DNA of 64,000 bases from the NCBI GenBank assembly GCA_964570365.1, contig CAZMXT010000001.1, forward strand, positions 73,440-137,439, written 5' to 3'. The position numbers and the translations under genes were made by a program. The notes under the pieces are model-generated. The model worked only from the letters and a program-made list of their open reading frames with translations, did no database searches and had not been told where the DNA came from. Within the stretch, counting starts at the first letter, position 1. Every line of letters starts with the position of its first letter. Positions 27,698-55,465 of this stretch are shown in pieces. The stretch is from an uncultured Pseudomonadales bacterium (GTDB lineage Bacteria > Patescibacteriota > Microgenomatia > UBA1400 > PJMF01).

Positions 27698-27704
27698 AAT
27701 GCTA

Positions 27705-28802
27705 TTACCTTTTTATCATTTGTTGCAAGGTCTTTTCAAAGCGATCTTGCGAGAACTGCCTTACTTGCGCTCTAGCCATTTCTCTAAGCGATGTACAAAG
27801 TTGTGTGTCCGTAATTAATTTTGTGGTTAACTCCAAACATTCATTTTCTGTCTGCCATAAATATGCAGTGAACTCAGCGCCTACTACCTCAGTTTGACCA
27901 CCCTTACCTACCACGACTGGGATGCAACCGCTAGCCATTGCTTCTCCTGTACTAATTCCAAAGTGCTCTACTTTTTCAGGCGCCTCAGCTTCATTTACCT
28001 CAAACCCAGCCGCGTGCCAATAAATACTCGCTTTAGCATACCATTCCAAGAGTTGACTACGCGCCACATCGTGCAGAAAAGTAATTGGCAAGTCTTTTGC
28101 AAGTTGATAAAGCTGACTCACATACTCTTGATCTTCTATCCCACCAATCAAAACTAGCCTCCAATCTGCCATCAGCTCCGGGTTAGACTGCAACATCTTC
28201 TGAAAGATTTTTATCAAAAGATCTTGCCTTTTTGCATGTGTATGTTGAAAAAAACGCCCCACACTTAAAATCACTTTTTGTTTTTTTGGAGCATGCTGGA
28301 AACAATCCTCCTCTATCACAGGATAGTGAACAAACGGAACAGAAGTCTGCCAAGCTTTTTCAACTACGTTTTGAGTAAACTGTGAGTTCGCATTTTTAAC
28401 AGACCAATTTTTGAGCTTTAATCTTTCCAAAACTGAGGTTTTACGGTTGGTGAATGGAATCTGGATGTGTAAAACATTATTCTTTGCTGCACTAAAAAAT
28501 AAACTGCCGTCAGTGACGTAGTAGAGCAAGTCATACTTGCGAGTCCAATCTAGCTTCCTAAAAAAAGAAGTCTGAGTGCCTAACGGGCTAGCAATAAACC
28601 CAACTACATCAAGTGAAGAGCCTAAGAAGCGACTGTAGTTCTGGCGATATTGAGCCACTTGGTCAGAGGTCAGTGGGTCAGTGGCAGAGATGGCTACTTC
28701 AACTTGGTGTGAGTTGCCCAAAGCCTGTGCGACTTTAAATAAATATCTTTCGCCGCCACCAAAGTGTTTGGGAATATATGGCGAGTATAAACAAACCCTC
28801 AT
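27705..28802 (-). CDS. GT-B fold glycosyltransferase (GT4-like)
   Basis: The C-terminal domain contains EHFGISTGEAMASGCIPVVVGKGG, a GT4/GT1-like nucleotide-sugar binding region. It is 365 aa. Confidence 0.7.
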   Translation of the reverse strand: MRVCLYSPYIPKHFGGGERYLFKVAQALGNSHQVEVAISATDPLTSDQVAQYRQNYSRFLGSSLDVVGFIASPLGTQTSFFRKLDWTRKYDLLYYVTDGSLFFSAAKNNVLHIQIPFTNRKTSVLERLKLKNWSVKNANSQFTQNVVEKAWQTSVPFVHYPVIEEDCFQHAPKKQKVILSVGRFFQHTHAKRQDLLIKIFQKMLQSNPELMADWRLVLIGGIEDQEYVSQLYQLAKDLPITFLHDVARSQLLEWYAKASIYWHAAGFEVNEAEAPEKVEHFGISTGEAMASGCIPVVVGKGGQTEVVGAEFTAYLWQTENECLELTTKLITDTQLCTSLREMARAQVRQFSQDRFEKTLQQMIKR

Positions 28803-29680
28803 GTCACCTCTTCGTCTTTTTTGAGTTCTTTCTTCTCAACAGCAAGCACAGGTGATAAGTCTTCAGGTTTGACACTTTTCCATTGGTTATTAATTTCTAA
28901 CTCTACCCGTTGATACTTCTCGGCTAACGACGGTTTCTGTTGTAATTCCCAAACTTGGATGTAAACCAAAATTCTATTTATTGCCTGCACTAGCGCCTCA
29001 ATCAGACCCTCTAAACCATCCTGGTAGCCTTTTTTGAGAACGGCGCGTCGAAAGAACTCCATGCTCCCTTTTCGTAGCAGCGTCATAAAAGAAACTGGCG
29101 CAACACTTGATTCATACAAAAGTCTAGCTTCGATGGGGGTCCAACTCGCACTCTTGAGTAAGCCATCTACCGTATTTCGGTGGGTCAGATGTACAAGCGA
29201 ACTATGCAGCTGTACTGATTCACCAGTAAAAACTGGACTCTCATGAATATCACCTTGCCACTTCTCTAGGGCACTCAATCTAAATACTCGGGTAATAAAC
29301 TCACTTTGCCAGCCACCGGATTGAAAGACTTTTCCATACATCATGTTCTGTCGATGGAAAACCAAGGCATTTGCGGTACTGGTCTCAGTTTGGACCAGAA
29401 TTTCTTTAGCGAGTCGTGGAGTCACTCGTTCATCAGCATCAATGTAAAAAACCCACTCAGAACTGGCAGCCTCTTTGCCAATATTTCTCTTCTCTGAAAA
29501 AGAGTGAGTCTGTGAGGCAATTACTTTCGCTCCAGCTCGCTCTGCTATCCCAACAGTTTGATCTTCAGAGTCTGAGTCCACCACGATAATCTCGCTGCAC
29601 CATTGCAGTGCTTCCAAGCAATTCGCGAGCATGAGCTCTTCGTTTTTGGTGATGATGATGGCTGAGATGCTAGGTCGCAT
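28799..29680 (-). CDS. GT2 family glycosyltransferase
   Basis: It has MRPSISAIIITKNEELMLANCLE...IIVVDSDSEDQT...IDADE and is a paralog of 17635-18429. Confidence 0.8.
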   Translation of the reverse strand: MRPSISAIIITKNEELMLANCLEALQWCSEIIVVDSDSEDQTVGIAERAGAKVIASQTHSFSEKRNIGKEAASSEWVFYIDADERVTPRLAKEILVQTETSTANALVFHRQNMMYGKVFQSGGWQSEFITRVFRLSALEKWQGDIHESPVFTGESVQLHSSLVHLTHRNTVDGLLKSASWTPIEARLLYESSVAPVSFMTLLRKGSMEFFRRAVLKKGYQDGLEGLIEALVQAINRILVYIQVWELQQKPSLAEKYQRVELEINNQWKSVKPEDLSPVLAVEKKELKKDEEVT

Positions 29681-29687
29681 GGTATAG

Positions 29688-30692
29688 CTAGATGATTGTC
29701 TGCTTACCCATTCTACCTAAAAGAAAATCAATTGTCGCCCGTCGTTCCGTTGCGTCTCCTAGAACTAGGAAGCGCAGAGCTAAGCGAAAAATATTTGCCT
29801 GGAAGAAGAAGATCTCCGGAACTGCTTTCCAGGCAGGTTTGGGAATTTTTTTGGTTTTTGTTGCAAGAGGGTTGTGCATTTTCTGCAATTCTTGCATAGA
29901 GTAGGAGTATCTTAAGAAAAAGTAAAATCTATTTCGAGTTTGATAGTATCTATTGAGCTCAGAGCCTGCTCCACCTGAGGAACTGGCGTTGGCATGCCAA
30001 ACTTTGGCATCTGGCGCATAAAGAACCTTAAATCCAGCTTGTCGAACTCGGATACTCCAATCCACATCCTCTAAGTAGAGGAAGTACTTTCCCTCAAGTA
30101 CTCCTACTTTTTCGATGACTGAGTAGGGCATGAGCACACAGCAGCCGGTAGCAAAATCTGTTTCTTGAGCTTGATCAAAGTGGCCGCGATCTAGTTCATC
30201 CACTCCCCGATGAAACGCATCCAAGTTTGCCCAGTCAATACTTCCCCCTGCATACCACAAGACTTTTCCTTTTTGCGATGGGGTATAGCTAGCATGGTGG
30301 TACTCGTTACCTGGGGCAAAGTAGATTTTGGGAGTAATCATCCCAACTTTTTCGCTTGACTCAGCGCAGGCGATCAGCTTAGTAAGAAACTCTTCATCTT
30401 GGGTTGTGTCATTGTTTAAAATCAAGATATAATCCGGCTTCTTTTCTCGAGCTACATACTCAATTCCTAAGTTGTTACCATCAGTAAACCCTAAGTTGGT
30501 ATCACTTCTGACAATCACGGTATTTTTAGGCAGCTGTTTCTGAGGAATGATCAGCGCGTCTTTAGAGCCATTATCAACTACCACTGTTGAGACGGTGTAA
30601 CTCTTTCTCTTTATTTTACGCAGTGAATCCAAGCACGCCCGAGTGTCTTGATCGTTATTGTAGTGAACAATGATAATAGCAACGTGAACCAT
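29688..30692 (-). CDS. GT2 family glycosyltransferase
   Basis: It has VAIIIVHYNNDQDTRACLDSL...VVVDNGSKD...ILNNDT...YLEDVDWSIR, a classic GT2 layout. Confidence 0.85.
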   Translation of the reverse strand: MVHVAIIIVHYNNDQDTRACLDSLRKIKRKSYTVSTVVVDNGSKDALIIPQKQLPKNTVIVRSDTNLGFTDGNNLGIEYVAREKKPDYILILNNDTTQDEEFLTKLIACAESSEKVGMITPKIYFAPGNEYHHASYTPSQKGKVLWYAGGSIDWANLDAFHRGVDELDRGHFDQAQETDFATGCCVLMPYSVIEKVGVLEGKYFLYLEDVDWSIRVRQAGFKVLYAPDAKVWHANASSSGGAGSELNRYYQTRNRFYFFLRYSYSMQELQKMHNPLATKTKKIPKPAWKAVPEIFFFQANIFRLALRFLVLGDATERRATIDFLLGRMGKQTII

Positions 30693-30724
30693 GATTGATT
30701 ATTGTACCGCACTTCTGAGGTGCT

Positions 30725-31666
30725 TTACCTTTTTAATCGGCGTCGGAGTTGCCACCAGAGCTTCATCAAGCCATTTGTGTGCTGGACTTGCCAATCAGCA
30801 ATCCAGTAGTTAAGGTCTCTTTGAGAACTTCGCAACCCGGCAATAATATCTCTAGGGACATTCTGTGGATCAGTTGTCTTGAAACCATGTTGCTGCCAGC
30901 TCTTGAGTACCACGCTTAACTGATAAAAAGATTGTAGGTAGCTCAGACTCAAACCATGCATACCCTCTTCAATTCCTTTTTCCGCAAAGCATCTGCGAAA
31001 AAACTCATCCCAGAATGTCTTAATTGTTTTGGCAGGCGAGGTAGAAAATGAAGCTACACTCCCACTAGTAAGCTCGATGGTGCTATAGCGATTTAACCGT
31101 TCGATATACTGCTCGATTGTTTGATAGTGGTGGTGCCGAATTGCCCACTCTTCTTTGGCAGCGAGCTCCTCACAACGTCCGGAGACTTGAGGGGCTGCGT
31201 GAATTGTGTCTTCCCACTGTACGGCACCTCGTCGAAACAAGCGCAGTTGATAGTCTGGCCACCAGCCAGTTTTTTCAATCCAACGATCAAAAATAATGTT
31301 TTTCCGAGGTAAAAAGTATGCGAATGTTTCAGAGTTTTTGTCCTCAACTATAGCGAGAATTTTCTGAGCAAGTTGAGGTGGCACTTCTTCATCAGCATCA
31401 ATCACCAACACCCATTCACCTTTTGCCTTACTAACTGCAAAGTTCCGGGCTGGCTCTACATACTGAACATCTTTATGGGGAAATATATCAGCTGAAAAAT
31501 CTTTAGCTATCTCCAAGGTGTTGTCAGTACTCTCCATATCAACGACAACAATCTGATCTACAAACATCAAAGAACTTAAACACCTTCTCAGCGTTTCCGC
31601 AGAGTTTTTTGTGTTTATAACAGCCGAAATTTTGACGGAATTTTTGTGTTCAATCACATGCCTCAC
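30725..31666 (-). CDS. GT2 family glycosyltransferase
   Basis: It has ISAVINTKNSAETLRRCLSSL...IVVVDMESTDNT...VIDADEE. Confidence 0.8.
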   Translation of the reverse strand: MRHVIEHKNSVKISAVINTKNSAETLRRCLSSLMFVDQIVVVDMESTDNTLEIAKDFSADIFPHKDVQYVEPARNFAVSKAKGEWVLVIDADEEVPPQLAQKILAIVEDKNSETFAYFLPRKNIIFDRWIEKTGWWPDYQLRLFRRGAVQWEDTIHAAPQVSGRCEELAAKEEWAIRHHHYQTIEQYIERLNRYSTIELTSGSVASFSTSPAKTIKTFWDEFFRRCFAEKGIEEGMHGLSLSYLQSFYQLSVVLKSWQQHGFKTTDPQNVPRDIIAGLRSSQRDLNYWIADWQVQHTNGLMKLWWQLRRRLKR

Positions 31667-32271
31667 TTATTAATTTTTATGACTGTCTCATTTAACCACA
31701 TTTTATCTTTTAAGAACTCCACTTCATGTTTGCGGTAATCAAAGAGCCCATTTGCCCGACGAAGGTCATCAGAACTACGTAAAAAAAATAGCTGGATATT
31801 TCCAGCACCATCTTGGAAAACTGCAGTACCCTCATTTTGGAAGCGAGTTGTTTGGTTTGGAAGCTTTCTTTCCACCAGTAACTCTGAGAGGGAGGGTCGG
31901 CCACGCACAATGATCTCCTGACTACTTAATAACGGCGAGTGAAATTCTAGCAAGACTGTCTCTTGAGCTTCAGGATTGGGAATCGGGTTCTTCATCTCTA
32001 GTGTGCCAGTTAAAGTAACCAGCTCGCGGTTAAAGGTAAAGTTGCCAGGAGAATAATGTTCTCGGAACTTCCAGTACTTTTGCGGATCTAGAGTTTGGGT
32101 TTCTTCCAGTTGCTTTAGAAAAGTCTCTAGAGTCATTGCCCTGCGCGCTGCAAAAAGTTGGTGCGAGAAGCTGGGTACTAGGAGCAAGGCCAGCAACAAC
32201 ATACTTAGACCCACGAAAGCAGTAAAAAATACTGAGACGGATTTTTTAGCTCTAGGATACAATGAGGACAT
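31663..32271 (-). CDS. membrane-anchored hypothetical protein (N-terminal TM plus soluble domain)
   Basis: A 202-aa protein with one N-terminal TM helix (VFFTAFVGLSMLLLALLLVP) and no recognised motif. Its start codon overlaps the start of the divergent 32270 gene (CATG). Confidence 0.45.
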   Translation of the reverse strand: MSSLYPRAKKSVSVFFTAFVGLSMLLLALLLVPSFSHQLFAARRAMTLETFLKQLEETQTLDPQKYWKFREHYSPGNFTFNRELVTLTGTLEMKNPIPNPEAQETVLLEFHSPLLSSQEIIVRGRPSLSELLVERKLPNQTTRFQNEGTAVFQDGAGNIQLFFLRSSDDLRRANGLFDYRKHEVEFLKDKMWLNETVIKINK

Positions 32272-33994
32272 GCGATTTTTAGCTCAGCAACTTTGGCGTA
32301 GCAAAGATATTTTATACTGTCTACTCCTTTTCATTGTAGCACTGGTTTTCTCCCTAGACCTCTTCTTACATCAGGGGCGGCCAGCTACTTTTGATGGACC
32401 AACTCACCTAACAACGATGGCTCAATTCTTCTTAGGGATGAAAGATGGGCAGTTCCCAGTCAGCTGGGCAGATGGCTTTGCAAACTATGGCATGCCTATT
32501 CCTTTGATTGCTCAGCAACTGACTTCTTACTTAGGTGGTGCATTCATTTTTTTTACTCGGGATGTGGTTTTGGCCTATAACCTGGTAGTATTGCTCGGAG
32601 CAGTCCTTTCTACTTGCTTTTTTTACGCTTTTCTACGCTTATTTTTTAAACAAGAAAGCTCCTTAGCGGGGAGTATTCTGTTCAGTTTAGCGCCCTATCG
32701 AATCATCAACATTTATACTCGTGGAGCCATCCCTGAATTTTTTGTGGCGGTTTTTATTCCCTTAATTGCGATTGGTATGGTCACTTTTTTTCGTGATAAA
32801 AAGAACTGGGGTTTACCCGTTTTTCTAATAGGACTGTGTGGACTAATTTTGAGTCACCCCATGATGCTCGTACCTGCCAGTTTTATCTTAGCTCCGGTCG
32901 CTCTGGTAGCCAGCTGGTCTTGCTGGAAAAACTGGCGTCAAGTACTTGTGATTGGCTTTTTGACTGGAGCCGCTTTTGCGCTTACTGCCTACTACTTGGT
33001 TCCGCTATTTGGAGAAATTAAGTATTTATATTATGGACAAGGAACCAAGCACTTTATTTCCAACAACTTCCTGACCTGGAAGAACTACTTCCAACCTGCA
33101 TGGCCGTACTACACTGCTACAGATATTGGACCACGCGGCCAGTACTTTCATCTTGGAACAGTGGAAATGGTGGCACTACTTGCCGGTGCTGTGGTCACCG
33201 TTATCCGCTTTATAAGAAAACCGCACCGAAACCTGACGGTGTTAGATGGCGCATTAATCGTCACCGGAGTTATTATTTTCTTCACTCTCTCTGTGTCTGA
33301 ACCGTTATACAGAGCTCTTTTACCATTAAATAATATTCAACATCCCTGGCGCATGTTAACTGCGCTGATTTTTTTGCCACCATTTATTTTGGCCTATCTT
33401 CTGGATCAAATGAAAGCTCTGCAAAAATACCAATACTGGTTGGCCGGCGCAGCCGTCCTCCTAATTTGTGGTCTTCGCTTCCCTCAGCTCTACGGCAAGA
33501 ATTATATCTGGTATCCAGATTCTTTTTACTACTTCACCCCGATTAACTTGCATGGCGAGGTCTTAAATACGATCTGGACCGGGAGCAGCAGAGACTACTC
33601 GATCCAGTCCCAAAAGGCTCAGATTATTGGCGGCAACGGGCAGATCGCACAGATGAACGTACTGACCGGCCAACGTCAGTATCAAGTTTCCGCCACGACT
33701 CCGATCCGAATGGTGGACTACACCTTCTACTTCCCTGGTTGGAAGGCATATGTAGATGGACAAGAAGTACCCATAGAGTTCCAAGATATGAATTACCGGG
33801 GCGTAATTACGTATCAAGTTCCAGAAGGAAACCATCAGGTAATGTTGCGTTTTGAAGATACGAAGATGAGACTCTTGGGTAAAGTGGTGACCGTATCTAC
33901 GGTGATCAGCCTAGTTATGATCTACTTTTGTCTTAGACTGCGTAACTCAGCAAAGAGTTTTTCCCGACCGAGCAAGAAGAAAACAGCTAAGTAA
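32270..33994 (+). CDS. large polytopic membrane protein, GQFP-RW motif family (GT-C candidate)
   Basis: N-terminal loop FDGPTHLTTMAQFFLGMKDGQFPVSWADGFANYGMPIPLIAQQL. It is a paralog of 14868 and 35399 and is 574 aa. Confidence 0.65.
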   Translation: MRFLAQQLWRSKDILYCLLLFIVALVFSLDLFLHQGRPATFDGPTHLTTMAQFFLGMKDGQFPVSWADGFANYGMPIPLIAQQLTSYLGGAFIFFTRDVVLAYNLVVLLGAVLSTCFFYAFLRLFFKQESSLAGSILFSLAPYRIINIYTRGAIPEFFVAVFIPLIAIGMVTFFRDKKNWGLPVFLIGLCGLILSHPMMLVPASFILAPVALVASWSCWKNWRQVLVIGFLTGAAFALTAYYLVPLFGEIKYLYYGQGTKHFISNNFLTWKNYFQPAWPYYTATDIGPRGQYFHLGTVEMVALLAGAVVTVIRFIRKPHRNLTVLDGALIVTGVIIFFTLSVSEPLYRALLPLNNIQHPWRMLTALIFLPPFILAYLLDQMKALQKYQYWLAGAAVLLICGLRFPQLYGKNYIWYPDSFYYFTPINLHGEVLNTIWTGSSRDYSIQSQKAQIIGGNGQIAQMNVLTGQRQYQVSATTPIRMVDYTFYFPGWKAYVDGQEVPIEFQDMNYRGVITYQVPEGNHQVMLRFEDTKMRLLGKVVTVSTVISLVMIYFCLRLRNSAKSFSRPSKKKTAK

Positions 33995-35406
33995 ACCAGC
34001 ACCGTTAAGATCATTCCAGAGACCATATTTGGAAAACTTCTGGACCACACCCCACTTAAACTCACCCCAACTAAGGCCATTGCCCCTGCAGCTACTAACT
34101 GTCGCCAGGTATTTTCCCAGACCTGAACTGGCAGTATCTTACGCACATACCAAATTGGTAACACGGAACTAAACGAGATAATAAATGCCGCAATTGCCAC
34201 TCCTTGAAAGCCAAACCACCAAATCATTAAAGGCGTTAAAATCCAGGTTAAAGAGGTCCACATAATCATTAACTTTAATGTCACATCAATCTTACCAATT
34301 GCACTCAGCGTATTGGTCAGGGGAGTAGAAATTGCTCCCCAGCCAATGCTTAAGGTAAACAGAATAAAGGTCAATAATGCTGGCTGCCACTTTTGATACT
34401 TCGCCACCAGTGATATGAAGGGTCCAATAAAAACACACATCCCAATGAGTAGTGGGAAAATGGAGAGTGAGATAAAAAATAAGGTTTTTTCGATTGCCTT
34501 GCGCAGCAGATTACGATCGTGTTGCAATCTTGAGTATGTGGGGAAGGTAATTGCAATCACGTTCTGGACCGTCAACTGGTAGGGAACTTGAGACCATTGC
34601 TTGGCAAAGTTAATGTAGCCAAATTCCTGTAAAGGCAAAAATAAGCCCAGGAAAAGATAAAAAAGCTGATCCTTAATCCTTGCTAGAAAATCATTGAGCT
34701 GGAACTTGGTACCCGTCCCCAGCATAGTCCGCAAAGCCACCCGATTGAGTGCAAAGCCAATTGGCCACCGTTGAATTAGATACATGACCAGTACTCCGAG
34801 TATAGAGCGCAGCAAAATCGCATACATATAGGACTGGACCCCGAAGCCATTTACGGCTAAATAAACCAAGATGCCATAGTACGTTAGCTGCTCAACTACC
34901 TGGGGAAAAACCATTTTAGAGAAATCTAACCTGCGTTCGAGAATTACTGAAGGAATAGTTTTTAAACTGGCTAAAGGGAAAGAGATACCCAAGGCGAGTA
35001 AAACGAATACGCCATTGGCGCCAATCTTTGGGGTTAAAACCCCACTCATCGCTAAACCTACCGTAATCAAGAAGATGAACCAAGATAAGATCTGCTGAAC
35101 CGTAAAAACGGTACGGTACTCGGTGACCGTCGGCGAGTCTTTTTTCTGAATCAGCGCAGACGCTAAACCAATATCAGAAAAAAACGTCAGTAAACCAATA
35201 ATGCTGGTCACCACTCCGTAAATGCCAAACTCTTGAACTGTTAGGTATGCTCCCAAGACAAAAGATGCACCTAAACCAATAAGGTGTAGCAGCAGTGTAC
35301 GAGCCATGTACGAGGCAGCCCCAGAAACGGATTTGCGCTTAATCTCTTGGACTTCTTCTGCGCCAATTCCTTCTAGCGAAGTTGTGACAGCAGCTGTTTC
35401 AGACAT
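33922..35406 (-). CDS. Wzx-like flippase / polysaccharide biosynthesis protein (MOP superfamily)
   Basis: It has about 12-14 predicted TM helices. The start is placed at MSETAAV (ATG 35404-35406), giving an 8-bp overlap with the upstream gene; the track's longer ORF starts at 35442. No soluble domain is present. Confidence 0.6.
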   Translation of the reverse strand: MSETAAVTTSLEGIGAEEVQEIKRKSVSGAASYMARTLLLHLIGLGASFVLGAYLTVQEFGIYGVVTSIIGLLTFFSDIGLASALIQKKDSPTVTEYRTVFTVQQILSWFIFLITVGLAMSGVLTPKIGANGVFVLLALGISFPLASLKTIPSVILERRLDFSKMVFPQVVEQLTYYGILVYLAVNGFGVQSYMYAILLRSILGVLVMYLIQRWPIGFALNRVALRTMLGTGTKFQLNDFLARIKDQLFYLFLGLFLPLQEFGYINFAKQWSQVPYQLTVQNVIAITFPTYSRLQHDRNLLRKAIEKTLFFISLSIFPLLIGMCVFIGPFISLVAKYQKWQPALLTFILFTLSIGWGAISTPLTNTLSAIGKIDVTLKLMIMWTSLTWILTPLMIWWFGFQGVAIAAFIISFSSVLPIWYVRKILPVQVWENTWRQLVAAGAMALVGVSLSGVWSRSFPNMVSGMILTVLVYLAVFFLLGREKLFAELRSLRQK

Positions 35407-37096
35407 TATTTTGTTTACTTTCTGTGTGGTGGAAGATAACATACCCGAGTAAGATAACTCCGCTAATCGCAGAAATCGTATCGGCTAAACTTCTAATTGG
35501 GGTACTGCCAAACTCAAAACCCAGTAAATGTTCACCCGCTGGCACGTCTGCGGCGATCGTACCGTGTTGACCCAGTCTTTTCACTAATGGCGTTTTGCCA
35601 TCCAGTTCTACCTGCCAACCTGGAAAGTCAGCCACCATCAGATCAAATGTCGCCGGACTCGTAAATGTAGTTCTAAATAACTTCTGATGTCCCCGATCGA
35701 CCAGCACCTCCACCTTTGACTCTGTACCTCCTGGAACTAAGTACTTTTCAGTTGGAGGTGTTAATTCTGAAGCCATCTGGATAGGAATATAATCTGGCAG
35801 AATACTGCTCATCTCGCTTCTAATCCGTTCTGGAGAACTGTAGTAAAAGCTATCCGTATTTTCTAAGTAGCTTTCGGGGCGAAAAAAGAACGTATTTCCA
35901 ATCAGCAACACTCCGCCAAGTAGCAGCACATATAAGTACCGGACCATTTTGTGTGTAATTAAAGTTACGCTTGCTCCAGCCAGTAGGGCGATAAAAACGG
36001 CGGCCACTGACAAATACCGCCAAGGGAACTGAACAAAGTGGAGCAAAGGAATGTGATCCCAGATTGGTTGGGACTTCAGCAACGTCATAAATAAACTCAG
36101 TCCCAGAAGAGCTAAAAGTACTGCATAGAATCCATTTCGGGAACGTAAGAATTGCTTGGGGGATAGAGTTTTTGCTCTGCGCAGCAACAACACTGCTAGA
36201 ACTATCAGAGCAATTATTTGGCCTGCACCCAAGAAAAAAGAAATATCATCTTGAGGCCCCCAGCTCGAACCGCCGTACTTCCAGTTGGCAGAAAAGAACT
36301 GACGAATATAGAGGAAGTGTTGCGAGTAATGGAAGTAGCCAGTCAGGATTTTATCAATTTGGGTAAATGACTTTTCGGCAAAAGAAGGAAGCAAGTAAAA
36401 GGCAGCACTACCAAGTGCTAGAAGGTAGGCACCTCCTACTTGAGCGATTGCTCTACCAATACTTAGCTGTTTATTTCTCTCCCAGAACCAAATCGCAACG
36501 GCAAAAGCCAAACTAAAAGGTAAAAAGATCAAAGTAGACACATTGTGGCTTAAAAACAGCGTAATCAAGCTGAGCGTTAAAGTAATGAACCCAGTCTTTT
36601 CTTTGCGATAAATCTGCAAAATTCCGAGCAAAATCCACGGCATGGCCATAATGGCCCATGACTCGCTCAAAGCTCCTCGGACAAACAGATTCACTGCCCG
36701 GTACGGAGCCAACGTAAGGCAAAAAGCGGTGAAAATGCCACCTGACCGACCAAACATTCTCGCACCTAATTTATAAGCTCCCAAGGCAGTACCCACAGCT
36801 GTCATCAAGTAAAGTAGCTTAATTGAAGCAACTAAATCAAAACCTAGCCAGTGCCAAAAGGCACCCACATAGTAAGGAAGTGGCGCATAAAACTCATATA
36901 AAGGCATTCCATATCCATACCCGAAGTTGGCTGACCAGCGCACTGGGAACTGACCTTCTTGAAGAGCCAAAAGCATCTCCCCAATTCTGGCTCCATGAAC
37001 ATAGTCATGAACTCGAAAAAAACTAGGATGCAGCAACGACCAGGAACTAGCCAAGACAGCGAGCAGGAGAGAAAAACCAACCAATACTTTTTTCAT
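35399..37096 (-). CDS. large polytopic membrane protein, GQFP-RW motif family (GT-C candidate)
   Basis: N-terminal loop FRVHDYVHGARIGEMLLALQEGQFPVRWSANFGYGYGMPLYEFYAPLPYY. It is 565 aa. Confidence 0.65.
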   Translation of the reverse strand: MKKVLVGFSLLLAVLASSWSLLHPSFFRVHDYVHGARIGEMLLALQEGQFPVRWSANFGYGYGMPLYEFYAPLPYYVGAFWHWLGFDLVASIKLLYLMTAVGTALGAYKLGARMFGRSGGIFTAFCLTLAPYRAVNLFVRGALSESWAIMAMPWILLGILQIYRKEKTGFITLTLSLITLFLSHNVSTLIFLPFSLAFAVAIWFWERNKQLSIGRAIAQVGGAYLLALGSAAFYLLPSFAEKSFTQIDKILTGYFHYSQHFLYIRQFFSANWKYGGSSWGPQDDISFFLGAGQIIALIVLAVLLLRRAKTLSPKQFLRSRNGFYAVLLALLGLSLFMTLLKSQPIWDHIPLLHFVQFPWRYLSVAAVFIALLAGASVTLITHKMVRYLYVLLLGGVLLIGNTFFFRPESYLENTDSFYYSSPERIRSEMSSILPDYIPIQMASELTPPTEKYLVPGGTESKVEVLVDRGHQKLFRTTFTSPATFDLMVADFPGWQVELDGKTPLVKRLGQHGTIAADVPAGEHLLGFEFGSTPIRSLADTISAISGVILLGYVIFHHTESKQNNV

Positions 37097-37119
37097 TGCT
37101 TCAGTTATTCTAATACAGT

Positions 37120-38190
37120 ATGCCGCAAAGGTCTGAACTTCTCAAAGTGATTCTTCAAACTGTTGCAGTGACTTTGCTTTTGGTCATTCTACTCTTTGGC
37201 GCCACTGCTGGGGTACTAGGATTCTATGCGTACAGACAAGCAAAGCTTTTTAGCGACAGCGCAGGCGTGTCTATTCCAGAGCTGATTGAAGTTGCTCGAG
37301 CTGGCTGGAGAGTCCAACCGCGTCAAAATAATCAACGAGTCAATTTTTTAATCTTAGGCACTGATGAACTTGCTTCCCGCGGAACTGTACCAGTCCTAAC
37401 AGACACCATGATGGTGGCATCTTTGAACCTGAATAATGGTCAACTAAATATGCTCTCTGTACCTCGAGATCTTTGGTCTGCTGAGTACCAAACTCGAATT
37501 AACGCCTTATATACTTATGGAAAAGACCGCTACCCTGACGAACCCGCGCGATTTCCTCGTGAAGTCATTGAAGAGCTCTTCGAGCTCCAAACTAATTACA
37601 CAGTCATTTTAAAGTTAGAGACTGTTGGAGAATTGATTGATGCTATCGGCGGAGTAGAAGTTGAAGTACAAGAAACATTTGTCGACCCGCTCTTTCCTCG
37701 CCCAGAAGTTGACGTGACAGTTGAACGAGATCCTCAAAAGCTCTATCAAACCGTCATTTTTACGGAAGGAACAGAAAAGATGACTGGCGAACGAGCCCTA
37801 CAGTACATCAGGAGCCGTCACTCCACAGGGAATCAGGGGGATGACGTAGCTCGCTCTGTCCGCCAACAAGCGGTCATCACCAGTTTGATCGCAACCCTGC
37901 GGCAACCTTCATTTTATAAAGATTTTTCTCGAGCCGGAAAGCTGTACTCTTTTTATCAAAAAGAATTTGCACAGTTTATTCCTATTACCGAGGTAATTGG
38001 CATGGTAAAACAGTTATATCCAGTGAAAAATCAAGTCAGCCTACAAAGCCACTCATTAAGTATATTTCCTGACGAACCAACTGGGTCAATTACTCACCCT
38101 CCAGTTAATAGGTATCAAGGCCAATGGGTATATGAAGTTCGAGATAAAGCAGCGCTGGAGCAAGAGGTCCATCAAAAATTACAACTATGA
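37120..38190 (+). CDS. LytR-CpsA-Psr (LCP) family glycopolymer/phosphotransferase ligase
   Basis: An N-terminal TM anchor is followed by NFLILGTDE...VLTDTMMVASLN...LSVPRDL, the hallmark LCP motifs. Confidence 0.85.
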   Translation: MPQRSELLKVILQTVAVTLLLVILLFGATAGVLGFYAYRQAKLFSDSAGVSIPELIEVARAGWRVQPRQNNQRVNFLILGTDELASRGTVPVLTDTMMVASLNLNNGQLNMLSVPRDLWSAEYQTRINALYTYGKDRYPDEPARFPREVIEELFELQTNYTVILKLETVGELIDAIGGVEVEVQETFVDPLFPRPEVDVTVERDPQKLYQTVIFTEGTEKMTGERALQYIRSRHSTGNQGDDVARSVRQQAVITSLIATLRQPSFYKDFSRAGKLYSFYQKEFAQFIPITEVIGMVKQLYPVKNQVSLQSHSLSIFPDEPTGSITHPPVNRYQGQWVYEVRDKAALEQEVHQKLQL

Positions 38191-38390
38191 CACTTCGCCA
38201 ATCTCACCAGCCACTCAGTCACAAGCTAGTCATGCGGATATCTGTTACAATCATCATCATTCTGACTCTTCTAGTTGGCTACTACGAATCAACTTTATAT
38301 ATTTGGCAGACCAATCACCGAAGCGCGCTAGAAAAATTTAACGTCAATACAACCAAAGAATTACTTAAGTTAGAGGTGGAGACCAAATGA
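38187..38390 (+). CDS. small membrane protein (67 aa), hypothetical
   Basis: One TM helix ([14 protein letters not shown]). ATGA overlaps at both ends (38187-38190 and 38387-38390) suggest translational coupling between the LCP gene and rmlB. Confidence 0.35.
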
Positions 38391-39397
38391 AATTACTTGT
38401 GACAGGAGGCGCCGGCTTCATCGGTTCAAACTTTATTCACTATTGGCTCAGGAATCATCCCGATGATCAGGTAACGAACTTCGATAAGCTCACTTACGCG
38501 GGCAATCTTGAAAACTTAAGAGCAATTGAGAAAAACCCTGCCTACCACTTTATCCAGGGTGATATTACCTCTCCAGAACAAGTCGCTCAAGCTCTCAATA
38601 ATATTGATGTCGTGGTCCACTTTGCGGCCGAGACTCACGTAGACCGGTCAATTTTGGGACCTGGCATTTTTTTACAGACCAACGTGATTGGGACTCAAGT
38701 CCTGCTCGACGCTGTCCTAAAAGCAGGAATCCAGCGCTTTCATCACATCTCTACTGACGAAGTATTTGGTTCGCTAGAACTTGGTTCTCAAGAGAAATTC
38801 ACTGAACAGACCGCATATGATCCTCGCAGTCCTTATTCTGCCAGCAAAGCAGCCTCAGATCACTTAGTTCGTGCCTATGGAGAAACCTATGGCTTGCCCT
38901 ACACTATTACCAACTGCTCAAACAACTACGGCGAGTATCAATTCCCGGAGAAACTTTTTGGCTTAACTATCACCAACCTGATCGAGGGCAAGAAGGTTCT
39001 GGTGTATGGAGATGGTCTAAATGTGCGCGACTGGTTATATGTACAGGATCATTGCCGAGCCATTGAAGCCGTGCTGCTCAAAGGTCAGTTGCAAGAAACC
39101 TACACGGTCGGCGGCTTAAAAGATGATGTCAGTAACCTCGAAGTAGTCAAAATGATAATGAGAATTATGGGTCAGAACGAGCAAATGATTGAGTTCGTCA
39201 AGGACCGACCAGGTCATGATCGTCGCTATGCAGTAAATTGGGACAAGATCCATGATCAGCTCGGCTGGTCGCCTTCTGTAACTTTAGAAGAAGGTTTAGT
39301 CAAAACCATTGCTTGGTATCAAGAAAATGAAGCTTGGTGGAAACCCTTGAAAGAGAATACTCAAGCTTTTTTTGCGCAAAACTATAAAAAAGCCTAA
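38387..39397 (+). CDS. rfbB: dTDP-glucose 4,6-dehydratase
   Basis: It has [16 protein letters not shown]...[14 protein letters not shown]...[10 protein letters not shown]...ITNCSNNYG, the canonical RmlB-type extended SDR. Confidence 0.9.
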
Positions 39398-39415
39398 AAA
39401 CTTCTAAGGAAAAAT

Positions 39416-39949
39416 ATGAAGATTGCAGATACCTACGAGCATCAATTAACCACTCAAGCCTATGGCCAGAAACCATTCATTGAAGGTGTTGAGATCATTG
39501 AGCTGTCTTTTCATAATGACGATGGAGGCAATTTTGTCGAGCTTTTCCGCCTAGAAGAGGGCCGCATCGCGGGTGTCAAAGAGCCTTTTACAGCTAAACA
39601 AATTAGTGCATCTGTTTTAACTCCTGGTACGATTAAGGCCTTTCATATCCACAAAAAACAAAATGATTTATGGTATGTCTCACCCTACGACCGCTTGCTC
39701 GTGAACTTGCGTGACTTGCGAGAAGACTCTCCTACCTTCAATGCGCATGTACGATTGGTTCTGGGAGGCGGTAAGAACTCAATGCTTCGGATCCCTCATG
39801 GCGTAGCTCACGGCGCCGCCAATGCGTACGAACGCAACATGACACTTTTGTATGCCACCAGCGAACAATTTAACCCTTCTGAGCCTGACGAACATCGCCT
39901 ACCCTGGGATGCATTTGGCGCAGAAATCTGGGCGCTGGTAAAAGGTTGA
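39416..39949 (+). CDS. cupin-fold dTDP-sugar epimerase/isomerase (RmlC-like; could instead be a 3,4-ketoisomerase)
   Basis: A 177-aa protein. HNDDGGNFVELFRLEE aligns with the DERGFFMETY region of RmlC. A possible RBS (aaggaaaaat) lies upstream. Confidence 0.55.
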   Translation: MKIADTYEHQLTTQAYGQKPFIEGVEIIELSFHNDDGGNFVELFRLEEGRIAGVKEPFTAKQISASVLTPGTIKAFHIHKKQNDLWYVSPYDRLLVNLRDLREDSPTFNAHVRLVLGGGKNSMLRIPHGVAHGAANAYERNMTLLYATSEQFNPSEPDEHRLPWDAFGAEIWALVKG

Positions 39950-39950
39950 G

Positions 39951-40829
39951 ATGAAAACTTCAATTATCGGAACCGGTCTTTCTGGTTTAGTCGGCTCTAA
40001 ATTAGTTACAGATTTTGAAGCCTCCTACGACTTCCAAAACCTAGATGTCACTCACCCCACTAAACCAGTAGATATTACCAATTTGGAACAACTTCGACAG
40101 GTATTTACTGCTTCTGAGGCACCAGTGGTGGTTCATTTCGCTGCCTTTACTGACGTTAATAAAGCTTGGGAAGATCGAGACAATAAAGAAGGCATCGTCT
40201 ATAAAGTGAACGTGACCGGCACTGAAAATATTGCCCGGGCAGCCAAAGAAACGAATAAGCATTTAATCCATATTTCCACTGCCTACGTCTTTGATGGCAA
40301 GAAATCTGAGTCATATACAGAAGAAGATCAGATGAGCCCGATTGAGTGGTATGGCCAAACGAAATCCTGGGCCGAAGAGAAAGTGATGAAAGTAGGTGGC
40401 AGCTGGACAATTCTGCGAATTGATCAGCCTTTCCGCAGTGACTCCTTTCCGAAAAAAGATATTGCCCACCGAATTATTGCTGGGCTGCAAGACAAGACGC
40501 TGTATCCGTTATTTACTGATCATTTTTTTGGCCCTACCTACATTAATGACTTTGCGAAAGTGATTGATTGGGTGATTCGGACCAAGACTGCTGGACTCTT
40601 TCATGCTTCTTCTGGCGAGCGCTGGACTGATTATGATTTTGCCAGCCTCATTTCCCAAACACTGAACTTACCTGGAGAGCTTCAAGTAGGCGACTTAGAT
40701 GAGTATCTGAGAACTTTGACCAGACCATATCAGCGAAATACCGCTTTAAATACGACTAAACTTTTTGCAAAACTGGACTTCCAGCCAAAAAGTATTAAAC
40801 GAGCAATCGCAGAAATAACCGATTTTTAA
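39951..40829 (+). CDS. dTDP-4-dehydrorhamnose reductase-like (RmlD family)
   Basis: It has MKTSIIGTGLSGLVGSKL...HISTAYVFDG...YGQTKSWAE, matching the RmlD pattern STDYVFDG...YGKTK. Confidence 0.75.
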   Translation: MKTSIIGTGLSGLVGSKLVTDFEASYDFQNLDVTHPTKPVDITNLEQLRQVFTASEAPVVVHFAAFTDVNKAWEDRDNKEGIVYKVNVTGTENIARAAKETNKHLIHISTAYVFDGKKSESYTEEDQMSPIEWYGQTKSWAEEKVMKVGGSWTILRIDQPFRSDSFPKKDIAHRIIAGLQDKTLYPLFTDHFFGPTYINDFAKVIDWVIRTKTAGLFHASSGERWTDYDFASLISQTLNLPGELQVGDLDEYLRTLTRPYQRNTALNTTKLFAKLDFQPKSIKRAIAEITDF

Positions 40830-43824: not shown

Positions 43825-44795
43825 AAAAAGCGTTTATAACTGGGATAACCGGCCAAGATGGTTCGTACCTAGCTGAATCACTCTTAGAAAAGGGCTATCA
43901 AGTGTATGGCTTAAATCGCCGGACAAGCACCCAAAATTTTGAACGGATTCAATCAATTATTCACAACCCAAACCTGCAGTTGGTTTCTGGTGACTTACTC
44001 GATCAGCATTCCCTGACTGTCGCCTTGAAGGATATTCAACCTGATGAAGTGTACAACTTGGCTGCTCAGTCATTTGTTAAAACGAGTTGGGACCAACCAG
44101 TTCTGACTGGTGAGTTCACTGCTCTGGGGGTGACGCGAATGCTTGAAGCCGTGCGTTTTGCTTGCCCACAAGCTCGTTTCTACCAAGCTAGTTCTTCCGA
44201 GATGTTTGGTAAAGTTCAGGAGGTACCTCAAACCGAAGACACGCCTTTCTACCCTCGCTCGCCTTACGGCGTTGCGAAGGCATACGGACACTGGATTACA
44301 GTCAACTACCGCGAATCTTTTGATCTCTTTGCGTGCTCGGGCCTACTCTTTAATCATGAGTCTCCTCGCCGTGGCTTAGAGTTCGTAACTCGCAAAATTG
44401 CCAATGCCGTAGCTCGAGTGAAGTTAGGAAAACAACAGCATGTAGAACTGGGCAATATGGAAGCCAAGCGTGACTGGGGCTATGCCAAAGACTATGTTGA
44501 AGCCATGTGGTTAATGCTTCAACAAGATAAGCCTGAAGACTATGTCATTGCTACCGGAGAAACTCATTCTGTACAAGAATTTTTAGAGCTGTCATGTCAA
44601 GTGGCTGGGATTCAAGATTGGCAATCTATTTATAAACATAACCCTAGCTATGACCGACCAGCAGAAGTAGATCTCCTGATCGGAAACCCTTCAAAAGCCA
44701 AGCAAAAATTAGGTTGGAAACCCACCATTACCTTCTCACAACTAGTTGAGTTAATGGTTTTAGCTGAGCTTAAAATAGAAAGTGCTGCTCAATGA
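43821..44795 (+). CDS. gmd: GDP-mannose 4,6-dehydratase
   Basis: It has [36 protein letters not shown]...YNLAAQSFV...[21 protein letters not shown]...NHESPRRG, the canonical Gmd. Confidence 0.9.
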
Positions 44796-45964
44796 AGAAG
44801 GCCTTTGTCATCATTCCCACCTACAATGAGCGTGAGAACATCGCCAAAGTAATCCCTTTGCTACTAGAAGTGTTTAGTAAAGTAGCTGATTGGGACATGA
44901 ATATTTTGGTGGTAGATGATAATTCTCCAGATAGAACTTCTGAAGTGGTTCAAGAACTACAAAAAAAATCCAAAAATATCTTCTTACTCTTAAACCCTCA
45001 CAAGTCGGGTCTGGGCGGAGCCTACTTAAAAGCTATGGCCAAGGCTTTTGATGAACTCAATGCCGACGTGGTTTTTGAGTTTGATGCAGATCTATCTCAT
45101 GATCCAACCAAAATTCCCAATTTCCTTAAAAAAATTGATCAGGGGTATGACATGGTACTGGGTTCTCGCTATATTTCTGGTGGTGGCATACCAGAAAACT
45201 GGGGACTCCATCGAAAGCTTTTAAGCGTCATTGGAAACTTGAGTATTATGTTAGTCCTGACAGACTTCCGAATCAGAGACTGGACCGGTGGCTACCGCGC
45301 TATCACCCGCAAAGTCTATGAAGCAGTTCATCCCGAGCTGCACAGTGAGCGATTCACCGGCTACACTTTTCAGATTGGCTTTTTACACAAGGCAGTTAAA
45401 AAAGGATTTAGCATTACCGAAGTACCTTTTAAGTTTGTAGATCGAGAGGTGGGTGAATCCAAGCTTGGGATGGAGTATATTAAAAATACGCTGTTATACA
45501 TTTTTCGCGTTCGCACTAAAGAAATCCTAACTAATCGAATTTTTAAGTTTATCGTGACTGGTAGCGTGGGAGCTCTTGTTCAGCTCTTATCCCTGCAGTT
45601 CTGGCGCAAATCATTCCCATATGAAGCTGCGTATTTTATCTCCTTAGAGACTGCTATTCTCTCTAACTTTATCTTAAGTAACTTCTGGACCTTTGCTGAC
45701 CGGAAGCCCAAACTTAGTCAGTACCCTAGTAAATTCGCCCAGTTTAACTTTGCATCAGCTGGATCGATCGTTGTCCAATTAATTATTGCGACAGCTGGTA
45801 AAAATCTGATTGGTTTGCATAGTCTCCTTACTGTACCGTTCATTAACTTAGAGATTGATACTGGTCTGATTTATGCAGTGATTGGGATTCTGGTCGGCAT
45901 GTCCTGGAACTTCTTCGCCTATAGTCGTTTTATTTGGAAAAAGCCACCAACTAAGGGGTCTTAG
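44792..45964 (+). CDS. polyprenyl-phosphate sugar synthase (Ppm1/DPM1-like GT2) fused to a C-terminal GtrA-like membrane domain
   Basis: The N-terminus [12 protein letters not shown]...VVDDNSPD...[10 protein letters not shown]...GSRYI matches DPM1-like enzymes. The C-terminus [15 protein letters not shown]...NFWTFADRK is a GtrA-family 4-TM domain. Confidence 0.8.
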
Positions 45965-45981
45965 TCTAGAGTTAACCTTAT

Positions 45982-47523
45982 ATGCTCGGTTTTCCCACTC
46001 TTTCTTCCATAAAACAGCGGATCAAAAAAATGAGTGTGATTGAGTGGATTTTAGTGGTGTTGTTGCTCGGGGGAGGCTTTTTACGTTTGTGGAACTTTCG
46101 CAATACTTTGGAGTTTCTCGGTGATCAAGGTCGTGACGTAATCGTCGCCAGTCGTATCTTTAGAGACCATGACCTTGTTTTGATTGGACCGGTCACCAGT
46201 ACAGGAGACATGTATCTGGGTCCCCTGTACTACTACTTCATGGTTCCATTTCTGTTTCTTAGTTTCCCCAATCCCATTGGACCAGCCTACGCAGTTGCAG
46301 CCCTTTCTATTCTGACTATCTTCCTGATGTACCAGCTAGGGAAGGAAATCGTCGGCCAAAAAGCGGCCATACTTGGGGCATTCTTTTTTGCGTTTTCGAG
46401 TGTCGCGGTCAGGTTTGCCCGCTTTAGTTGGAACCCTAATCCTGCGCCTTTACTCTCAATCATTTTTATCTGGGCATTGTGTAGAGCGCGCCTGAAAAGC
46501 CATTGGTACTTTGTACTGGCTGCTGCCTGCATTGCCATCTTAATCCAACTTCACTACGTAGCTTTATTGACCGTGCCAATGGCAGGTCTGGTGTGGCTAG
46601 CAGAGGCATTTAAACTGCGTCAGAAAGCAAGTATGGCGAAAAGATTCCTTGCTGCCACTCTAGTCTCACTGCTCCTGTTTGTGGCTTCATTGGCACCTTT
46701 AATTGCCTTTGACATTCGACACGATTACTTGAACTTTAACTCTTTAAAGTCCTTTATTGCTGACAGCCAGGACCCGCTGGAAGCCCAATCTATCAGCGAA
46801 AAGATTGCTACCACCCTCAAAGAGACACATGGCAGAAGTTTGCACATCTTCTTTGAAGTCTCCATTGGTAAACAAAGAACCCTAAATACTGTACTACTCA
46901 TCGGTGTCTTAGCAGCTCTAGTCATCATGTTAACTAAAAAGAAGAATGAGTGGAGAGATGGCCTCAGGTTACTTTTTCTTATCTACGTCGTGAGTGTTTT
47001 GGGTTTGTCTTTCTATCGCGGTTCTGTCTTTGACCACTATATTTCCTTCTTATTTCCCGCCACTTTCCTCATCTTTGGCAGTGTCCTAACCTGGATTAGT
47101 CAACATAAACTTGGAAAGCTGCTTGCAATCATTTTGATTGGAATTTTCCTTGGGTGGAATATTCCGCGCTACCCTTTGCGCACTCTGGGCTGGACAGTAG
47201 ATGAAATGCAGCAAACCAGCCAGACAGTGCTAGATCGAGTGAAACCAGGAGAAAAATATAACGTAATTTTACTTTCAGAATCAAAGGATATTTACGGTCA
47301 GAATTATCAGTACTTTCTACATGCTTCTGACAAACCGCCAGTACGACTTGAACAACTAGGAGAGGCCAGTAAATTATTTATAATTGATGAGCAACGACTG
47401 CCGATTGATGTAACCCAAATGCCAATTTATGAAATTGTCGTATTTCCCAATAAGAAGCCGACTGAAGTGTATACTATACAAGACGGTCCCCGTATTACAG
47501 TTCTGAAGAAAGAAGATGACTAA
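45982..47523 (+). CDS. polytopic membrane protein, GT-C candidate (GRD-motif family, paralog of 11292)
   Basis: See 11292; the two share the GDQGRD...LIGPVTS block. It is 513 aa with a hydrophilic C-terminal domain of about 150 aa. Confidence 0.55.
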   Translation: MLGFPTLSSIKQRIKKMSVIEWILVVLLLGGGFLRLWNFRNTLEFLGDQGRDVIVASRIFRDHDLVLIGPVTSTGDMYLGPLYYYFMVPFLFLSFPNPIGPAYAVAALSILTIFLMYQLGKEIVGQKAAILGAFFFAFSSVAVRFARFSWNPNPAPLLSIIFIWALCRARLKSHWYFVLAAACIAILIQLHYVALLTVPMAGLVWLAEAFKLRQKASMAKRFLAATLVSLLLFVASLAPLIAFDIRHDYLNFNSLKSFIADSQDPLEAQSISEKIATTLKETHGRSLHIFFEVSIGKQRTLNTVLLIGVLAALVIMLTKKKNEWRDGLRLLFLIYVVSVLGLSFYRGSVFDHYISFLFPATFLIFGSVLTWISQHKLGKLLAIILIGIFLGWNIPRYPLRTLGWTVDEMQQTSQTVLDRVKPGEKYNVILLSESKDIYGQNYQYFLHASDKPPVRLEQLGEASKLFIIDEQRLPIDVTQMPIYEIVVFPNKKPTEVYTIQDGPRITVLKKEDD

Positions 47524-55464: not shown

Positions 55465-55465
55465 G

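Follow-up and report, generated by a model that had tools for sequence, protein, structure and literature searches.

The glycopolymer phosphotransferase family named LytR-CpsA-Psr (LCP), which includes the wall teichoic acid ligases TagT, TagU and TagV of Bacillus subtilis and LcpA of Staphylococcus aureus (LcpA_Sa), shares a core set of residues consisting of two aspartates that bind Mg2+ (D234/D246 in Cps2A and D152/D165 in Psr) and four arginines for binding of the pyrophosphate (Cps2A R267, R362, R364 and R374; TagT R118, R219 and R227). Replacement by alanine of any one of the three TagT arginines abolishes ligation. In the rhamnose-containing cell wall polysaccharide (Rha-CWPS) systems of Firmicutes, LCP enzymes form part of a common logic that runs from GT-A glycosyltransferases through a Wzx flippase and GT-C glycosyltransferases to the LCP protein and attachment to N-acetylmuramic acid (MurNAc) (PMC9574508). 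Here we describe an LCP protein of 356 aa, and the glycan genes that surround it, in a 64,000-nucleotide stretch of a metagenomic contig (CAZMXT010000001.1, positions 73,440 to 137,439 of the forward strand; hereafter the window), within which the LCP gene occupies positions 37120..38190 of the + strand.

The candidate phyla radiation (CPR), or Patescibacteria, accounts for a large part of bacterial diversity, and the host-contacting surface of its members is almost unstudied experimentally. It has been inferred that CPR bacteria have a Gram-positive-like envelope (PMC6744442), and Méheust et al. 2019 list for CPR a PF03816 family with one transmembrane (TM) segment and a median length of 364 aa (3.6k.fam01230; PMC6744442). 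The presence of LCP proteins in CPR is already catalogued and the proteins discussed here are already named 'LCP family protein' in source databases. The assignment itself is thus a sound annotation, confirmatory rather than surprising. What the present comparison adds is an intact-looking LCP ligase at the head of a rhamnose operon whose conservation extends over 80 species-level genomes from a single CPR lineage.

Identity and active site of the LCP protein

The open reading frame (ORF) starts with ATG, ends with TGA and spans exactly 37120..38190 (+). Its translation matches PF03816 (LytR_cpsA_psr) in Pfam with E = 2.6e-28 and a score of 99.5 bits (gathering score 24.6), and the NCBIfam model TIGR00350 ('LCP family glycopolymer transferase') with 86.9 bits against a cutoff of 62.3. 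A sequence search finds 17 distinct chains of solved LCP structures; with a 43-sequence profile the number rises to 18, and TagV is then the best match (E = 1.7e-24). From an alignment of 43 homologs AlphaFold2 gives a model with a mean pLDDT of 92.7 and a pTM of 0.85, and in a Foldseek search of the PDB all 33 matches with E ≤ 1e-3 are LCP structures, the next match having E = 0.035. These fold matches include TagV, TagT, TagU, Cps2A, S. aureus LcpA, Psr, LytR, BrpA and Actinomyces oris LcpA, with TM-scores on target of 0.54–0.78. The curated thresholds and the fold therefore agree with the family membership that a sequence-only reading of this DNA had proposed. The ORF is confirmed as a member of the LCP family, with a match far beyond chance, and every testable defining feature of the family is present except the region-A arginine discussed below.

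The protein has the anatomy of a single-domain LCP enzyme. Its sole hydropathy peak (~residues 5–38, 37132..37233, +; 19-residue Kyte-Doolittle windows of 2.0–2.6) falls within a long N-terminal helix that is modelled over residues 4–48, and this segment is the predicted membrane anchor. The catalytic domain, delimited to ~residues 70–340 (37327..38139, +) by alignments to Psr, TagV, TagU, Lin1025 and 3pe5, is predicted to be extracytoplasmic; the topology, with the N-terminus inside and the C-terminus and catalytic domain outside the cell, is assumed by analogy with characterised LCP proteins. A Pfam scan of the protein found no domain besides PF03816, and a hidden Markov model of the clade, run against six-frame translations of the 64-kb window, found no second LCP protein.

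For comparison at the species level, a scan of one genome per species gave 167 relatives, and the LCP gene was taken from the loci of the best 80 and aligned; the denominators of the residue counts are the homologs in which the alignment has any residue at the position. Residue roles were taken from one review and later papers on LCP enzymes. The correspondence with Psr was read from a pairwise alignment with PDB entry 9gn3, which is S. pneumoniae Psr according to its fold-search description and in which a constant offset of +128 from the chain index reproduces every published Psr number. The Mg2+ aspartates are D82 (Psr D152) and D95 (Psr D165), R116-D117 corresponds to Psr R186-D187 (the arginine being TagT R118 and A. 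oris R149), R231/R233 to Psr R314/R316, D242 to Psr D322 and R245 to Psr R325, and R126/N128 correspond to LcpA_Sa K135/N137. The catalytic residues likewise map onto Cps2A D234/D246/R267/R362/R374/D371/Q378 and onto TagT R118/R219/R227.

These positions hardly vary. D82 is kept in 78 of 78 homologs and D95 in 79 of 79, and R116, R231, R233 and R245, together with D117, N128, D242, R248 and Q249, are each found in 80 of 80 species-level homologs. Position 126 is Lys in 67 and Arg in 13 of the 80, so that the acceptor-side polar set (LcpA_Sa D123, K135 and N137; Psr D187, K208 and D322) is retained as D117, K/R126, N128 and D242. Since the core catalytic residues are invariant in proteins that share only 36–56% overall identity with the query, the active site is under strong purifying selection, and the protein is predicted to be a catalytically competent phosphotransferase. 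The sequence-only reading had named loss of conserved catalytic residues as the observation that would count against it; D82, D95, R116, R231, R233 and R245 all proved invariant.

The departure from the family pattern lies in region A. The region-A arginine (Psr R163, LcpA_Sa R99, TagT R95 and A. oris R128, the LcpA_Sa equivalence resting on an identical 23-residue spacing to R122/D123) is listed among the residues that solved LCPs have in common, and a contact with peptidoglycan has been proposed for it. In Psr, 3pe5, TagV, TagU, Lin1025 and Lmo1026 an R-S/T/A-D sequence leads into the second Mg2+ aspartate, and the query has L93-T94-D95 at this place, with no arginine. Position 93 is Leu in 78 of 79 homologs and Phe in one, and the PF03816 alignment to the query begins at profile position 2, which is T94. 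The loss is not disqualifying, because the arginine is dispensable in A. oris LcpA, whose R128A mutant glycosylates normally, and because TagT R95 is distal to the bound donor; the clade-wide change from Arg to Leu amounts to a natural experiment on a residue that mutagenesis in A. oris had already found dispensable.

Six positions upstream of L93 the clade has a basic residue of its own at position 87 (Arg in 74 homologs and Lys in 5). The loop lengths in TagU, Lin1025 and TagV lead us to infer that R87 corresponds, in a shifted position, to the canonical D+2 arginine (Psr R154). A loss of two canonical arginines, Psr R154 and R163, was considered and set aside since the loop-length comparison makes R87 the D+2 arginine, and one loss is accordingly counted. 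Taken together, the clade-wide leucine and R87 would indicate a remodelled loop on the acceptor side. Region B, which has been reported without any conserved residue across LCPs, is ~13 residues longer in the clade (residues 184–222) than in TagV and has clade-invariant positions at F187, D189, F192, P193, D204, P205, L208 and Y209. This invariance fits a donor whose reducing end may be conserved across the clade along with the glycosyltransferase (GT) cassette, and the region-B motif is a candidate for a clade-specific donor-recognition motif.

Conserved gene linkage and proposed function

The sequence-only reading had placed the LCP gene beside rml genes and GT-C proteins, and both are found there, with rmlB, RmlC-like and RmlD-like genes at 38387–40829 and a GT-C fold modelled for the immediate neighbour on the other side. 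The comparison with relatives that it had suggested shows the arrangement to be general. With the evaluable loci among the 80 species-level loci as denominators, rmlB lies directly downstream of the LCP gene in 71 of 73, rmlD downstream in 61 of 63, and trmD beyond rmlD in 55 of 60. The divergent upstream neighbour is a PTPS_related GT-C gene in 44 of 64 loci and a Wzx gene in 13, one or the other in 57, and in 52 of 58 loci a Wzx gene is found no more than 2.6 kb upstream of the LCP gene. Seven metagenome or genome contigs with LCP homologs 40–54% identical carry GT, Wzx and GT-C genes on the minus strand, then the divergent LCP, rmlB, rmlC and rmlD genes, with trmD on the minus strand; one of the seven has the same cassette genes in a rearranged order. 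The stable linkage beside the housekeeping genes trmD, gltX, ybeY and dnaX argues that the cassette belongs to the core genome and is not a mobile island. It is also strong comparative evidence that the LCP protein acts on the product of the neighbouring glycan genes.

The lineage that carries the cassette can be read from the homologs. An identical LCP protein is found on metagenome contigs of up to 161 kb, the next-best homologs are 53–54% identical, and those of them that are named are all Woesebacteria, Pacebacteria or 'Patescibacteria group'. Informative titles among the best 80 of the 167 relatives are Pacebacteria, Woesebacteria, Microgenomatus and Patescibacteria, and NCBI taxonomy places Woesebacteria in the Microgenomates group of the Patescibacteria group. 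The window is accordingly assigned to a CPR bacterium of Microgenomates type. The sequence-only reading had gone further and taken the LCP gene to point to a Gram-positive-type envelope as in CPR: the CPR homologs and the published envelope inference (PMC6744442) are in line with this, but an LCP gene alone is not diagnostic of envelope type. Many public records with a cassette of the Patescibacteria type, at least ten of the loci compared here among them, carry other taxon titles, such as 'uncultured Pseudomonadales bacterium', 'Vitreimonas sp.', 'Methylococcaceae bacterium', 'Limisphaerales bacterium' and 'candidate division TM6', which look like taxonomic mislabels.

It is reasonably probable that the LCP protein ligates a rhamnose-containing, lipid-linked polymer to peptidoglycan, where the donor, the acceptor and the topology are what we infer; family, fold, intact catalytic set and conserved gene linkage all support the ligase. 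In the proposed pathway, the products of rmlB and of the RmlC-like and RmlD-like genes would make dTDP-L-rhamnose, five GT2/GT4 enzymes would build a rhamnose-containing glycan on a polyprenyl-pyrophosphate carrier, and a Wzx-type flippase would carry this glycan across the membrane, outside which GT-C enzymes, supplied by a GT2-GtrA polyprenyl-phosphate-sugar synthase, would extend or decorate it. The LCP protein, tethered in the cytoplasmic membrane by its one N-terminal helix with the catalytic domain outside, would bind the polyprenyl-pyrophosphate head group through Mg2+ (D82 and D95) and R116, R231, R233 and R245. It would then move glycan-1-phosphate to an acceptor hydroxyl, most probably the C6-OH of MurNAc, so that a phosphodiester is formed and polyprenyl phosphate released. 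These CPR cells are accordingly predicted to bear a covalently anchored, rhamnose-containing wall polymer, and the GT, Wzx, GT-C, LCP, small TM protein and rmlBCD genes define a minimal gene set.

Several observations weigh against ligation to peptidoglycan. As judged from the alignment, leucine at the position of the region-A arginine weakens the assumption of a canonical peptidoglycan acceptor. The scores against the NCBIfam equivalogs TagU (53.9 against a cutoff of 441), LytR (36.4 against 450) and Cps2A (32.6 against 650) are so far below their cutoffs that homology assigns no specific substrate. Furthermore, neither rmlA, nor a priming phosphoglycosyltransferase of the WecA/TagO or WbaP type, nor peptidoglycan-synthesis genes were found in the 64-kb window, and the pathway is thus incomplete as seen. 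An ABC (ATP-binding cassette) exporter was not found in the window either, a Wzx flippase being present instead; the negatives for the priming enzyme and the ABC exporter cover ORFs of 110 aa or more. The rmlA, priming and export steps must be encoded elsewhere or be done by unrecognised proteins.

The region-A arginine lost clade-wide (A. oris R128, TagT R95) is the one that A. oris LcpA can do without, and as the proposed contact with peptidoglycan it is the residue whose loss would matter least to a protein-directed enzyme. The LCP protein might glycosylate a surface protein, as A. oris LcpA does with the sortase substrate GspA, and its glycan would then be found on a protein of the membrane or one anchored to the wall. 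Sortase occurs in nearly all Microgenomates, CPR have MdbA/VKOR as A. oris does (PMC6744442), and many PMT-like GT-C genes lie in the window. However, A. oris LcpA itself keeps the region-A arginine, its C179–C365 disulfide is absent here (the query and 65 of 80 homologs have no cysteine), and it is the weakest of the LCP fold matches (5v8c, E = 1.2e-9 against ~1e-15 for TagV). Moreover, no sortase or LPXTG-type substrate gene lies within 7–10 kb of the LCP gene in any of ~85 loci, the conserved partners being rml, Wzx and GT genes, and glycosylation of a protein is, in our judgement, unlikely. An altered region A is also compatible with a non-MurNAc acceptor of another kind, if the enzyme joins polymer to polymer, for instance a side chain to a rhamnan as proposed for the Enterococcus faecalis polysaccharide antigen (EPA), or transfers its polymer to a membrane glycolipid anchor. 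LCP-mediated transfer onto rhamnan has been hypothesised for enterococcal EPA (PMC9574508), and the ~16 polytopic proteins and several sugar-nucleotide pathways of the window imply a complex glycan of multiple parts. Attachment to the wall would then need a second ligase, but the window has one LCP gene and each cassette a single one. In addition, LcpA_Sa D123, K135 and N137, which have been proposed to line the sites for the peptidoglycan saccharide, are kept as D117, K/R126 and N128, and we hold transfer to another polymer or to a glycolipid to be quite unlikely.

The protein would not be a ligase in vivo at all if it served as a polyprenyl-pyrophosphate phosphatase that recycles the carrier lipid, or as a regulator or pseudo-enzyme, in line with the family's old annotation as a 'transcriptional attenuator'. 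LCP ectodomains do have pyrophosphatase activity in vitro, annotations such as 'cell envelope-related transcriptional' are still attached to the family, and degenerate LCP folds exist, for example 4OBM from E. siraeum, in which the four arginines are replaced. Unlike in 4OBM, the six core catalytic residues are invariant here over 80 species; Pfam finds no DNA-binding domain in the protein, whose single domain is predicted to lie outside the membrane, and ligase activity of the family has been established by reconstitution. Such a role is highly improbable. It is doubtful, too, whether the clade represents a distinct LCP subtype, characterised by a remodelled acceptor loop, an unusually conserved region B and an operon with rmlBCD and a small protein, that transfers a rhamnose polymer to a non-canonical acceptor; this acceptor might be a protein anchored by sortase, another glycan, or peptidoglycan with a different modification. 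If true, the subtype could provide these ultra-small bacteria with their housekeeping system for a secondary wall polymer, in place of teichoic acids, and its polymer would possibly be relevant to host attachment. No description of the conserved LCP–small ORF–rmlBCD cassette or of the Arg-to-Leu change was found in the open-access literature, and the one paper found on Patescibacteria and rhamnose concerns the wall of the host.

Other glycan genes of the window

Between the LCP gene and rmlB lies an ORF of 67 aa with a single TM segment (38187..38390, +). ATGA overlaps occur at both of its junctions, where the LCP stop meets its start and where its stop meets the start of rmlB, which makes the LCP gene, the small ORF and rmlB one translationally coupled unit. 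An ORF of 48–97 aa with one TM segment occupies the same slot in 51 of 75 species-level loci (for example at 8083–8253 in locus L009, 8077–8271 in L037 and 1434–1625 in L050). Common to the encoded proteins is an AGYYH(S/A) motif where the TM segment ends, and in most of them the C-terminus has a helix with the pattern LEDRYVRVR..LGxEETQxLID; in the window the motif is present as LVGYYES and the LEDRYVRVR tail is absent. No Pfam family was found for the small protein, the scan of 33 homologs giving scattered noise that included one FtsL_2 match at E = 0.076. The small protein might act together with the LCP protein as a partner, or control chain length. In six loci, all from one sub-clade, the slot between the LCP gene and rmlB is filled by a gene for a 202-aa RmlC-like cupin.

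The rml genes follow on the + strand. rmlB (38387..39397) encodes a dTDP-glucose 4,6-dehydratase that scores 481.6 bits against the TIGR01181 equivalog cutoff of 365.1. The next gene (39416..39949) encodes a divergent dTDP-4-dehydrorhamnose 3,5-epimerase with 65.3 bits to PF00908 (gathering score 27), which is called RmlC-like and not an equivalog since it reaches 48.8 bits against the TIGR01221 cutoff of 155.75. The RmlD-like dTDP-4-dehydrorhamnose reductase (39951..40829) scores 170 bits to PF04321 and 155.6 bits against the TIGR01214 cutoff of 224.

Divergent from the LCP gene, a polytopic membrane glycosyltransferase of 565 aa with a GT-C fold (PTPS_related/YfhO-like; 35399..37096, −) matches PF10131 with 53.4 bits. 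Its AlphaFold2 model, built with 44 homologs, has a pLDDT of 88.6 and a pTM of 0.92, and the top 31 fold matches in the PDB are all GT-C proteins, with probabilities of 0.94–1.00 and TM-scores of only 0.29–0.46; they include Pmt4, STT3/AglB/PglB, AftD, EmbA/B, ALG9/12, DPY19 and ArnT. H29-D30, directly after the first TM segment, is invariant in the 44 homologs and is the putative catalytic acidic site. The gap between the two divergent genes (37097–37119) is 23 bp, and the equivalent gaps in four relatives are 30–108 bp. With 23 bp available, either both promoters lie inside the coding sequence of the partner gene or the annotated starts are wrong. Scans around the gap were uninformative: the sigma-70 consensus gave 10 promoter-like sites where 6.6 ± 2.5 are expected, and the number of terminator-like sites was 5 for an expectation of 5.1.

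Further to the left lies the Wzx/MOP-family lipid-linked glycan flippase (33922..35442, −), which matches PF13440 with 160 bits and NF007773 ('MOP flippase family') below threshold. It is followed by a second PTPS_related GT-C paralog of 574 aa (32270..33994, +; PF10131, 28.6 bits) that is 28% identical over 568 residues to the GT-C protein beside the LCP gene. Five cytoplasmic glycosyltransferases (26774..31666, −), assigned by Pfam matches to GT2, GT4, GT2, GT2 and GT2, presumably assemble the lipid-linked glycan; the same GT block lies upstream of the flippase in relatives.

To the right of the rml genes the window carries ugd, gmd and a short-chain dehydrogenase/reductase (SDR) gene, a GT2-GtrA fusion and further PMT-like GT-C genes. 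The fusion (PF00535 + PF04138), which is of the polyprenyl-phosphate sugar synthase type, and the PMT_2 GT-C protein that follows it (44792..47523, +) may form an extracytoplasmic decoration module, by analogy with the logic of three-component glycosylation systems (PMC9574508); the fusion has sub-threshold similarity to PgfS, AglJ, ArnC and dolichyl-phosphate-hexose transferases. An Arn-like pathway to 4-amino-4-deoxy-L-arabinose (Ara4N) was considered for the ugd, SDR, GT2-GtrA, GT-C, DegT and formyltransferase genes and rejected, as 43806–44795 scores above the equivalog cutoff for GDP-mannose 4,6-dehydratase and no ArnA-type match was found.

In three relatives trmD is followed directly by a gene of ~360 aa, gltX, ybeY and dnaX. 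Compared with these, the window (41558–63881) has ~15 kb of sugar-nucleotide and GT genes inserted, which hold ugd, gmd, SDR, GT2-GtrA and PMT-like genes, a response regulator and tRNA-Gln, as well as NUDIX, GFO oxidoreductase, DegT aminotransferase and formyltransferase-like genes; the gltX-ybeY-dnaX block is inverted and lies at 58–63 kb. Genes for a GFO/IDH/MocA oxidoreductase, a DegT-family aminotransferase, an AAA_28 protein and a formyltransferase-like protein stand together at 52663–56227, the aminotransferase overlapping the previous ORF by ~140 bp as called. Such a group suggests that an amino-deoxy sugar with an N-acyl group, possibly N-formyl, is made, the NCBIfam equivalog scores all being below their cutoffs.

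The density of candidate extracytoplasmic glycosyltransferases is unusually high, ~16 polytopic membrane proteins with 7–11 TM segments lying between 1391 and 51093, most of them GT-C-like or related to GT-C-like paralogs. Ten fall into three paralog groups: PMT_2-like proteins at 18865–20478, 20462–22177, 23466–25118 and 25125–26855; PTPS_related proteins at 14868–16565, 32270–33994 and 35399–37096; and a third group that joins 11292–12740 with 45982–47523. Several of the polytopic proteins, and an ORF of 1180 aa at 3083–6625, have no Pfam match. The G+C content is ~0.35–0.40 in the first 12 kb and climbs steadily to ~0.47–0.48 in the last 12 kb, and the cumulative GC skew falls monotonically, without a turning point. 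The left end, low in GC and with glycan genes that lack a Pfam match, may have been acquired more recently than the rest of the island or may evolve faster.

Comparison with described systems

Among described LCP enzymes the closest are the wall teichoic acid ligases TagT, TagU and TagV of B. subtilis and LcpA of S. aureus, which have the same architecture of one N-terminal TM helix and a single LCP domain. TagV (Foldseek E = 1.9e-15) and LcpA (6uex, TM-score 0.78 on target) are the best matches, and the Mg2+ aspartates and the four pyrophosphate arginines of these ligases are identical to those of the query. Identity to the query is only ~17–21%. The query has leucine where these enzymes have TagT R95 or LcpA R99, its region B is longer by ~13 residues and contains clade-invariant positions, and it is found among rhamnose, Wzx and GT-C genes, whereas wall teichoic acid systems have tag/tar genes and an ABC exporter.

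The streptococcal and lactococcal type of Rha-CWPS, whose loci also have rhamnosyltransferases and a TagO/RgpG-type priming enzyme, follows the same pathway logic: rml genes, cytoplasmic GTs, a Wzx-type flippase, GT-C enzymes fed by a polyprenyl-phosphate sugar, and an LCP protein that transfers to MurNAc (PMC9574508). In those organisms the rhamnan backbone passes through the RgpC/D ABC transporter, of which none is seen in the 64-kb window, and the LCP gene usually lies outside the rgp/cwps cluster, whereas here the rmlBCD operon begins with it in almost all species. A. oris LcpA shares the LCP fold and an essential PRD arginine, R149, which is R116 of the query; it differs in keeping the region-A arginine, the C179–C365 disulfide and genetic linkage to its substrate GspA, none of which the query has.

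A further likeness is to Lcp1 (CpsA1/LcpA) of Mycobacterium and Corynebacterium, the arabinogalactan-peptidoglycan ligase, whose polymer has L-rhamnose in its linker and is built by many GT-C enzymes, largely outside the membrane. By fold, the GT-C neighbour of the LCP gene matches AftD and EmbA/B, and one relative has an MptA_B-family gene in its cassette. Actinobacterial LCP proteins usually have a LytR_C domain and a stabilising disulfide, whereas the query has neither LytR_C, as judged by Pfam, nor any cysteine.

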